From the sequence record PQ014731.1: DNA of 64,000 nucleotides. The stretch is one strand, 5' to 3'. This document shows, one piece after another, positions 61,326 through 62,199 of this stretch; the first letter of the stretch is position 1; the number at the start of each line of letters is the position of its first letter. This DNA is from Escherichia phage VB-EcoM-WM. The notes under the pieces were generated by a model. The model ran no database searches. It had not been told where the DNA came from and saw nothing but the letters and a program-made list of their open reading frames with translations. The position numbers and the translations under genes were made by a program.

Positions 61326-61751
61326 ATGATTTATGAAATGCCAAAACTGATTCGTGATGATGCCCAAAACGCTCACACCATTATTATGGGCAAACGCATG
61401 GATATTATTTGTCATAAAGATTTCTGGGAAGGAAGTTACTTCACAGAGTATTTTGGTAAACTGGACAATGGTCTGCTGATCCAGTTCTACACCGATGCGG
61501 AAAACAACATTCACTGGGAGTTCGAAACTGAAGATATCCATAAACTTTTCACCTTCCTCGGTATTAAGGTTGAGGCCAAGTTTGAAGAAGGCGAGTGCGA
61601 CGATTGTGGATTCTACGAGGTAACAGATTTCTATCTCCCAAGTGGTGAGAACCTTTACTATGAAAGCCACTTCGGCAACTCAAATATGCCACAAGGTTGG
61701 GATGAGTTTTTTGAAATTGCGGGAGAGGAGCTGGCATACCGTGATTATTGA
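61326..61751 (+). CDS. hypothetical protein
   Basis: 141 aa; RBS ggagaac. Confidence 0.4.
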   Translation: MIYEMPKLIRDDAQNAHTIIMGKRMDIICHKDFWEGSYFTEYFGKLDNGLLIQFYTDAENNIHWEFETEDIHKLFTFLGIKVEAKFEEGECDDCGFYEVTDFYLPSGENLYYESHFGNSNMPQGWDEFFEIAGEELAYRDY

Positions 61752-62199
61752 TACTGTAGAGGGAGATTTAATCTCCCTTTTTAAGAGCGGTGCTGGTCAC
61801 CTGATCCACGGTTGTAACTGCTTCCACACAATGGGCAAGGGGATAGCAAAACAGATTGCCCGTGAGTTCCCTCAAGCATTGGCAGCTGACAAAGAGACCA
61901 GACACGGTTGCCTAAGTAAACTGGGTGCGTTCTCCCGATGGGAGCACTTATCTCCGAGAGGTATTGTCTACGGAATCAATCTGTATACTCAGTTCTACCC
62001 AGGACCTAATGCTGAATATTTCTCAATCCTGAAAGGCTTTGAGCTAGTCAATGAGGTATTCAGTGGATCGACTTTACCATTCTACATCCCTAAGATCGGG
62101 TGCGGCATAGGCGGTTTGAAGTGGGAGCACGTAGAGGACGTTATTAACCTTGCCACTTTTGATATGAATATTATCGTGGTGGAGTACAAAAAGTGTTGA
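61741..62199 (+). CDS. macro-domain protein (ADP-ribose binding/hydrolase-like)
   Basis: GDLISLFKSGAGHLIHGCNCFHTMGKGIAKQIA and PKIGCGIGGLKWEHV match macro-domain signatures; GTG 61741 after RBS ggagaggag is the proposed start (track start 61642 overlaps upstream gene). Confidence 0.55.
   Translation: MIIDTVEGDLISLFKSGAGHLIHGCNCFHTMGKGIAKQIAREFPQALAADKETRHGCLSKLGAFSRWEHLSPRGIVYGINLYTQFYPGPNAEYFSILKGFELVNEVFSGSTLPFYIPKIGCGIGGLKWEHVEDVINLATFDMNIIVVEYKKC

Follow-up and report, generated by a model that had tools for sequence, protein, structure and literature searches.

What does a tailed phage gain from a stand-alone macro domain? This question is raised by a short gene in the 64,000-nucleotide stretch of the genome of Escherichia phage VB-EcoM-WM that we analyzed (PQ014731.1; hereinafter, the whole of this stretch is called the window), for which an earlier annotation made from the letters alone (the sequence-only reading) had offered three roles, namely, reversal of host ADP-ribosylation of DNA, the same for proteins, and degradation of ADP-ribose-derived signalling molecules. 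Our comparisons point to the first of these roles: the gene probably encodes an early-expressed orphan enzyme that would remove the ADP-ribose written by the toxin DarT2 on thymine in phage DNA and would do so in a lysine-independent manner, like SCO6735 of Streptomyces coelicolor. The window comes from a Vequintavirus, that is, an rV5-like myovirus of Escherichia coli; its region 61000-63000 is 99.2% identical to phage BP9, and most of this region is covered by 116 phage records. The gene in question is the following:

61741-62199, + strand: macrodomain gene of the Tk.4/AdfM type (PHROG 335), with a GTG start and a TGA stop at 62197-62199, encoding 152 amino acids (aa)

The gene is already annotated, and its role is already hinted at by a homolog. 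Exactly the same macro coding sequence is annotated in BP9, Bas53 and Bas54, and more than 100 relatives already carry an annotation of the macro gene, under the product names 'macro domain protein', 'O-acetyl-ADP-ribose deacetylase' or 'phosphatase'.

The identification of the product as a macro-domain protein, made in the sequence-only reading, holds. The 152-aa protein scores 28.3 bits against the Pfam family PF01661 (Macro), above the gathering score of 22. Structure prediction, which had been suggested as a check on the fold, gives a macro fold with high confidence: 39 family sequences went into the AlphaFold2 model, which reaches a mean predicted local distance difference test score (pLDDT) of 96.5 and a predicted template modelling score (pTM) of 0.90. 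All the leading matches of this model in a Foldseek comparison with the PDB are macrodomains, at template modelling scores of 0.7-0.8, with human TARG1 (OARD1; PDB 4J5R, 4J5S) at the top (E 3e-10, template modelling score 0.75-0.82), and with Poa1p, the Thermus and Mycobacterium DarG, BT1257 and SCO6735 among the others; TARG1 is the best profile match as well. Both glycine-rich loops (MGKGIA, residues 31-36, and IGCGIGG, residues 119-125) are kept across the family. We place the protein in the TARG1/DarG/SCO6735 (ALC1-like) class of macrodomains, as a stand-alone member.

Within PHROG 335 (E 5e-59), the informative relative is the Tk.4 protein of phage T4 (L003, 426-890), with 39% identity over the full length (150/152 residues; E 4e-40). 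The two proteins are close in size (155 aa in T4 vs 152 aa) and have the motifs HGCNC, MGxGxA, NLYTQ and PxIGxG in common, and both are encoded by stand-alone genes of an early region; they differ in that T4 is a Tequatrovirus, with other genes next to tk.4, and in that Tk.4 has Ser where the window protein has K33. All the invariant positions of the family (G8, H23, G24, N26, M31, G34, A36, D50, N80, Y82, Q84, P117, I119 and G120) are present in the window protein, each of these 14 residues being found in at least 226 of the 237 sampled members. A tblastn search detects the PHROG 335 family in 2,782 phage records, including T4-like, Felix-O1-like, PaP1-like, Vi1-like and other phages, and the family profile, searched against 1.84 billion cluster representatives, yields 18,289 matches at E <= 1e-3, with 1,279 at E <= 1e-30. 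In the T4-like Krischvirus GEC-3S, a 69%-identical copy occupies the tk.4 locus, between vs and tk (L005, 2001-2456).

The role of Tk.4 has been addressed genetically. When transposon mutants of T4 were screened as a library on a host with DarTG2, tk.4 was the single significant hit, and T4 became sensitive to DarTG2 after a clean knockout of tk.4 (HIDEN-SEQ preprint of 2025, 10.1101/2025.11.20.689424); the gene was named adfM, and its product is proposed to strip ADP-ribose off DNA enzymatically. In the same study, tk.4 is non-essential, with insertions at 45/46 TA sites, and so is bas54_0092, with insertions at 31/31 TA sites on E. coli K-12 (10.1101/2025.11.20.689424). The latter gene is the syntenic ortholog of the window macro gene, 81% identical to it: a run of seven genes in Bas54 (phage MaxBurger, MZ501093) agrees with the window gene for gene in length, at a constant coordinate offset. 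By analogy with these published T4 and Bas54 results, the macro gene is, apparently, an accessory one that can be dispensed with where there is no defence system to counter.

The residues that would carry out the reaction were compared across the family and with four macrodomain enzymes, the reference sequences of which were confirmed against the PDB and aligned to the family with HMMER and MAFFT; the equivalences rest on these sequence and profile alignments and not on the geometry of the model. The codons concerned are:

61807-61818, + strand: H23-G24-C25-N26, family-invariant; H23 corresponds to SCO6735 His24, Poa1p His23, a His in TARG1 and DarG Asn19, and N26 to DarG Asn22, SCO6735 Asn27, Poa1p Asn26 and a Ser in TARG1
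61831-61848, + strand: M31-G-K-G-I-A36, the first glycine-rich loop, binding the ADP-ribose phosphates; K33 corresponds to SCO6735 Lys34
61978-61992, + strand: N80-L-Y-T-Q84; Q84 (CAG, 61990-61992) corresponds to DarG Lys80, TARG1 Lys84, SCO6735 Gln85 and Poa1p Ser84
62095-62115, + strand: I119-G-C-G-I-G-G125, the second glycine-rich phosphate-binding loop; G124 corresponds to TARG1 Asp125, DarG Gly121 and Poa1p Phe152

Position 84 is occupied by Gln in 233 of the 237 family sequences, by Arg in one and by a gap in three. Lys is found there in none of them, and thus, the whole family, Tk.4 of T4 included, lacks the catalytic lysine of DarG and TARG1. H23, N26, D50, N80 and Y82 are each present in at least 232 of the 237.

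A precedent for activity with Gln at this position is SCO6735 (PDB 5E3B). This enzyme removes ADP-ribose linked to thymidine in DNA and is able to rescue cells from DarT; activity is abolished in its Q85A mutant and nearly abolished in its N27S mutant, and a water-mediated mechanism has been proposed in which the Gln positions the distal ribose (PMC9411070). Apart from Gln in place of the catalytic Lys, the window protein has in common with SCO6735 the His (His24 = H23), the Asn (Asn27 = N26) and a lysine of the first loop (Lys34 = K33), and the SCO6735 gene likewise has no adjoining darT (PMC9411070). The differences are that SCO6735 has Val25 after the His, in place of Gly24, and that it is the product of a chromosomal, DNA-damage-inducible bacterial gene.

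The work on SCO6735 also bears on two other explanations. The first is that the window protein neutralises DarT2 without catalysis, by binding the toxin or by shielding ADP-ribosylated DNA: the dead Q85A mutant of SCO6735 still inhibits DarT in vitro by interaction (PMC9411070), the phage factors AdfA and AdfB work by DarT binding (PMC11825919), and the catalytic lysine is absent from the window protein. We nevertheless consider this very improbable, given that H23, N26, D50, N80, Y82 and Q84, which line the predicted active site, are invariant in hundreds of diverged sequences, as is typical of enzymes, and that the protein has no counterpart of the C-terminal DarT-binding domain of DarG. The second explanation is a broad eraser that would take ADP-ribose off RNA (uracil-linked) and/or proteins besides DNA and would counter several ADP-ribosyltransferase defences. 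SCO6735, with its Gln-type site, acts on proteins and thymine-ADP-ribose DNA (PMC9411070), and uracil-ADP-ribose in RNA is a further substrate of TARG1-class enzymes, SCO6735 among them (PMC13036486); moreover, the family is very large (the 18,289 cluster representatives) and spans many phage groups with differing hosts. This breadth appears unlikely for the window protein: the DarTG2 screen in T4 gives a DNA-linked phenotype only, and a broad eraser is, in any case, an extension of the DNA-eraser explanation rather than a true alternative to it.

The family is also linked to the reversal of DNA ADP-ribosylation through its fusions, independently of T4 genetics. Among the 150 best representatives from the profile search, three of the multi-domain members (P0124, P0210 and P0212) combine a Gln-type macro domain (HGCNC, NAYTQ) with a NADAR domain (Pfam E 1e-19 to 1e-36), and P0124 and P0166 additionally carry DUF4326. 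NADAR is an eraser of guanine-linked ADP-ribose on DNA that is found in DarG1 and in phage AdfN (PMC11825919). The fusion proteins could act on DNA as erasers of thymine-linked and of guanine-linked ADP-ribose at once. In this 64-kb window, tblastn with four NADAR sequences detected no companion NADAR (AdfN-like) gene (best E 0.3). An AdfN-family gene of the NADAR type, as reported for Bas60-62, is bas62_0106 of Bas62 (MZ501084; L008, 1143-1694), annotated as 'putative YbiA-like N-glycosidase'.

One of the fusion members, P0124, gives a weak Pfam match to ThsA_Macro, which would suit a protein that blocks signalling-based defence by breaking down or sequestering immune signals derived from ADP-ribose, such as gcADPR and His-ADPR of Thoeris. 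This explanation, a contextual prediction that predates the T4 result, seems highly unlikely to us: the window protein has no specific similarity to known anti-Thoeris proteins, and its conserved His/Asn/Gln set points, instead, to hydrolysis of a glycosidic bond as in SCO6735. For the roles in protein ADP-ribosylation and in the processing of signalling molecules that had been offered for the gene, no specific support was found, and the reversal of DNA ADP-ribosylation is the best supported of the three, through the Tk.4/AdfM homology and the SCO6735-type His/Asn/Gln residues.

A further reference is DarG, the antitoxin partner of DarT. The macrodomain of DarG (DarG2; PDB 5M31, 5M3E, 5M3I) is the best single-sequence match in the PDB (E 4e-7), with Asn22 equivalent to N26 and with both glycine-rich loops, and the best models in NCBIfam and PADLOC are DarG models as well, with the match limited to the macro part. 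In the NCBIfam model NF048014, the window protein scores 47.4 bits vs a cut-off of 250 and matches only profile positions 3-139 of 338. Unlike DarG, which has Lys80 in place of Q84, the window protein has no C-terminal DarT-binding domain (152 aa vs the 344-aa canonical DarG in L010) and its gene has no adjoining darT: Pfam and PHROG comparisons found no darT (DUF4433) among the neighbouring ORFs (open reading frames). The family profile scores 49-60 bits with TARG1, Poa1p, DarG and SCO6735 and is about equidistant from them, and placing the family with one of the four by score proved impossible. The T4/rV5 family looks like a separate branch of the macrodomain class rather than a captured DarG. 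We also considered Gln-type macrodomains as natural DarG antitoxins, but the plasmid hit concerned (H91), whose neighbour is a DUF4433 (DarT) gene, proved to be a Lys-type DarG of the canonical kind (344 aa; INFPTKRHW) and is uninformative on the Gln type.

A DarG-like macrodomain does occur in other phages under the same name. In the chimallivirus PhiKZ, gp104, also named AdfM, strips the ADP-ribose written by DarT2 from DNA (Cell Rep 2026, PMC13309987). It resembles the window protein as a phage-encoded stand-alone macrodomain, with the role shown for gp104 and predicted for the window protein, but gp104 (L007, 12518-13006) is DarG-like, with Asn23 and Lys78 and with FPTK where the window protein has YTQF. 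It scores 72-91 bits with DarG vs 5-14 bits with the window protein and T4 Tk.4, is 23% identical to the window protein and is imported into the phage nucleus. By these sequence features, two lineages share the name AdfM, the Lys-type PhiKZ gp104 and the Gln-type T4 Tk.4 and rV5 protein. The passages of the T4 preprint and of the PhiKZ paper that were available do not mention this difference.

The remaining two reference enzymes bear on the substrate. TARG1, the best structural match, also cleaves thymine-ADP-ribose on DNA (PMC13036486); its catalytic dyad Lys84/Asp125 is replaced by Gln84/Gly124 in the window protein. Yeast Poa1p (PDB 6LFQ), an ADP-ribose-1''-phosphate phosphatase, has the H-x-C-N-C motif in common with the window protein, with His23 = H23, Asn26 = N26 and Ser30 aligned with T30, and is unlike it in Ser84 vs Gln84, in Phe152 vs Gly124 and in an insertion of about 30 residues that is absent from the window protein. 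Of the Poa1p residues that have been probed by mutant structures, His23 is kept as H23, and Ser30 corresponds to T30 and Phe152 to G124, which makes the signature a partial one.

These likenesses make Poa1p one of the best matches in both sequence and fold, and they raise an explanation in which the window protein processes small ADP-ribose derivatives, as a Poa1p-like ADP-ribose-1''-phosphate phosphatase or as an O-acetyl-ADP-ribose deacetylase, and would clear ADP-ribose-1''-phosphate or O-acetyl-ADP-ribose left by RNA repair or by sirtuin-type enzymes. The names in PHROG 335 and RefSeq ('phosphatase') and in GenBank ('O-acetyl-ADP-ribose deacetylase') agree with it, but these names stem from the generic A1pp motif and not from assays, and TARG1-class enzymes often give phosphatase or deacetylase activities in vitro as side reactions. 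With Gly124 for Phe152 and without the Poa1p insertion in the protein, and with the DarTG2 sensitivity of T4 lacking tk.4 left unexplained, we regard such a function as improbable, although less so than the non-catalytic and immune-signal explanations.

Several observations weigh against an eraser of DNA ADP-ribosylation as the function of the window protein. The evidence on T4 Tk.4 is genetic and comes from a preprint, and the anti-DarTG2 phenotype is known for T4 only and for no Vequintavirus copy. In one clinical-isolate comparison of that preprint (10.1101/2025.11.20.689424), bas54_0092 is undepleted (log2 fold change +0.42, q = 1), and the hosts of the Bas54 library reported there did not include a DarTG2 host. 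The window protein does not have the defining catalytic lysine of DarG and TARG1. SCO6735 is a distant relative (27 bits in pairwise comparison, 52 bits with the family profile), and TARG1, DarG and Poa1p are at least as close; the mobile loop of SCO6735, which aids DNA binding through Lys89 and Lys94 and is five residues longer, is missing from the window protein, where the loop after Q84 reads TQFYPGPNAEY and is free of lysine, vs GQHGMKTGSKGAPVRY in SCO6735. Finally, with the four reference enzymes about equally distant, at 49-60 bits, the sequence alone leaves the substrate unfixed.

With these points taken into account, removal of DarT2-written ADP-ribose from DNA remains the probable function, and from the homologies described above we infer its substrate, chemistry and anti-defence role. 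The gene would be transcribed early by the host sigma-70 RNA polymerase, as the third and translationally coupled gene of a small operon, probably from the site at 60960 described below. The two glycine-rich loops of the protein would bind ADP-ribose, and the bond hydrolysed would be the N-glycosidic one by which DarT2 attaches ADP-ribose to thymine in single-stranded DNA. Catalysis would proceed without the lysine of DarG and TARG1: Gln84, held by Asn26, would position the distal ribose and the water network as in SCO6735. Phage replication and transcription could then go ahead in cells that carry DarTG2.

The evolution of the gene can be traced by comparison with Bas53 (L004). The ratio of nonsynonymous to synonymous substitution rates (dN/dS) between the two copies is 0.12, and hence, this is a protein-coding gene under purifying selection. 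Nucleotide identity to Bas53 is 70-84% inside the macro gene (61741-62240 compared) and 91-100% in the flanks. Because the synonymous rate (dS) is 1.10 in the macro gene vs 0.15-0.18 in the flanking genes, with dN/dS at 0.12, the pattern indicates that the macro allele was replaced by recombination from a more distant source, rather than relaxed or positive selection on the protein.

How the gene is transcribed was the other question raised by the locus. The sequence-only reading had titled the gene as lying downstream of a consensus promoter and had called that promoter perfect. The promoter-like sequence exists, directly at the 3' end of the gene, as the accompanying text of that reading correctly had it, but it matches 11 of the 12 consensus positions and is not upstream of the macro gene:

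62196-62224, + strand: sigma-70 promoter-like site TTGACA-17-TATAGT with a TGn extended -10, overlapping the macro stop codon and pointing into the next gene
62253-62423, + strand: 56-aa gene of PHROG 15268, function unknown, served by this promoter

The sequence TTGACA-17-TATAGT occurs once in the window vs 0.02 occurrences expected. In Bas53, both hexamers persist (TTGACg, TATAGT) although identity in the rest of the region is only about 70%, and the 17-nucleotide (nt) spacer has the same length but differs at several positions; the retention of the hexamers in so divergent a region argues that the site is functional. As a promoter of the macro gene it was rejected, because its -35 hexamer overlaps the macro stop codon; it serves 62253-62423 and is without bearing on the expression of the macro gene.

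The signals and genes that would, instead, account for this expression are located upstream:

60500-60521, + strand: hairpin with a T run, resembling an intrinsic terminator, that closes the preceding transcription unit; conserved in BP9
60960-60988, + strand: candidate sigma-70 promoter TTGACA-17-AATTAT (10/12) with TG present, the nearest promoter-like site upstream
61060-61257, + strand: 65-aa gene of PHROG 9903, probably the first gene of the macro transcription unit
61326-61751, + strand: 141-aa gene of PHROG 8157, function unknown, with an 11-nt overlap with the macro gene (GTGATTATTGA)
61721-61730, + strand: purine-rich putative Shine-Dalgarno sequence GGGAGAGGAG, found by direct inspection 10 nt 5' of the GTG

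The site at 60960-60988 is fully conserved in Bas53 and appears to be the likeliest driver of the operon, in which the macro gene would probably be the third gene, after 61060-61257 and 61326-61751. The overlap of the 141-aa gene with the macro gene suggests translational coupling, and the same arrangement is found in BP9, Bas53 and Bas54. A longer ORF that starts at GTG 61642 (185 aa) was considered and rejected: all the homologs begin with M-I-I/V, which corresponds to position 61741, and the location of the extension inside the upstream 141-aa gene also counts against the 185-aa reading.

Promoter-like sites are numerous in this part of the window. Sites of the form TTGACA-N16-18-TAnnnT number 19 in the window vs 3.1 expected, seven of them at 55-63 kb on the + strand, and a dense run of sigma-70-like promoters extends over 55231-62678 on the same strand. 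Sites that match 12/12 consensus positions lie nearby, TTGACA-17-TATAAT at 56881-56909 and TTGACA-16-TATAAT at 62649-62676. Such a cluster would fit an early-gene region that consists of many short transcription units read by the host RNA polymerase.

A Pfam scan of 12 neighbouring ORFs gave no matches, and an Rfam scan of the whole window detected no RNA family; the neighbours of the macro gene belong to phage-only PHROGs of unknown function. Some 1.3 kb upstream of the macro gene, an ORF at 59861-60484 (+ strand, 207 aa) belongs to PHROG 1035 ('endonuclease VII'/HNH-type endonucleases; E 4e-41) and looks like a free-standing homing endonuclease; its counterpart in Bas54, bas54_0088, is annotated as 'putative homing endonuclease' and is non-essential. 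This ORF sits in a segment of about 640 bp (about 59850-60495) that BP9 lacks, whereas Bas54 and most of the other relatives have it. Its insertion changes the final 15 or so codons of the gene upstream, at 58618-59889 (+ strand). The product of that gene (PHROG 4477; 423 aa) is of unknown function, matches no Pfam family and has a low-complexity middle part rich in Gln and Pro; its C-terminal end varies with the presence or absence of the endonuclease insertion. The Bas54 ortholog, bas54_0087, is listed as 'Essential' by HIDEN-SEQ, with insertions at 8/57 TA sites.

Two observations concern the public records of the relatives. The window region is 94-98% identical to 16 GenBank records (MG065642-MG065690) labelled 'Campylobacter phage', with Campylobacter jejuni as the host; wrong labels or contaminating coliphages are the probable cause. 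The end of the BP9 record (about 125,000-138,295) contains IS2 and lambdoid prophage genes (integrase, exonuclease VIII, ea22) that are foreign to Vequintavirus, and because these terminal genes do not belong there, the BP9 GenBank assembly is probably chimeric.

A wider interpretation, which we put forward tentatively and hold to be a good deal less probable than the function proposed for the window protein itself, is that the Tk.4-type macrodomains form a distinct, lysine-independent 'Gln-type' lineage of nucleic-acid ADP-ribose erasers, with an origin separate from that of the DarG-derived AdfM of nucleus-forming phages. Their substrates may be wider, encompassing thymine-ADP-ribose DNA, uracil-ADP-ribose RNA and, perhaps, proteins, so that they could blunt several ADP-ribosyltransferase defences. 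If this interpretation is correct, the NADAR fusions would be two-in-one erasers of thymine and guanine modifications, and an arms race against various forms of DarT would lie behind the exchange of alleles between Vequintaviruses and T4-like phages.

With their broad host range, the rV5-like phages are candidates for use against E. coli in therapy and biocontrol, and knowing which defences they disarm helps to predict host range. The invariant change from Lys to Gln would make the 152-aa protein a compact natural system in which to model how ADP-ribose is taken off DNA without the lysine. If the gene is, indeed, an anti-DarT2 eraser, counter-defence against DarTG2 would reach a third major group of myoviruses, beyond the T4-like and the nucleus-forming phages.

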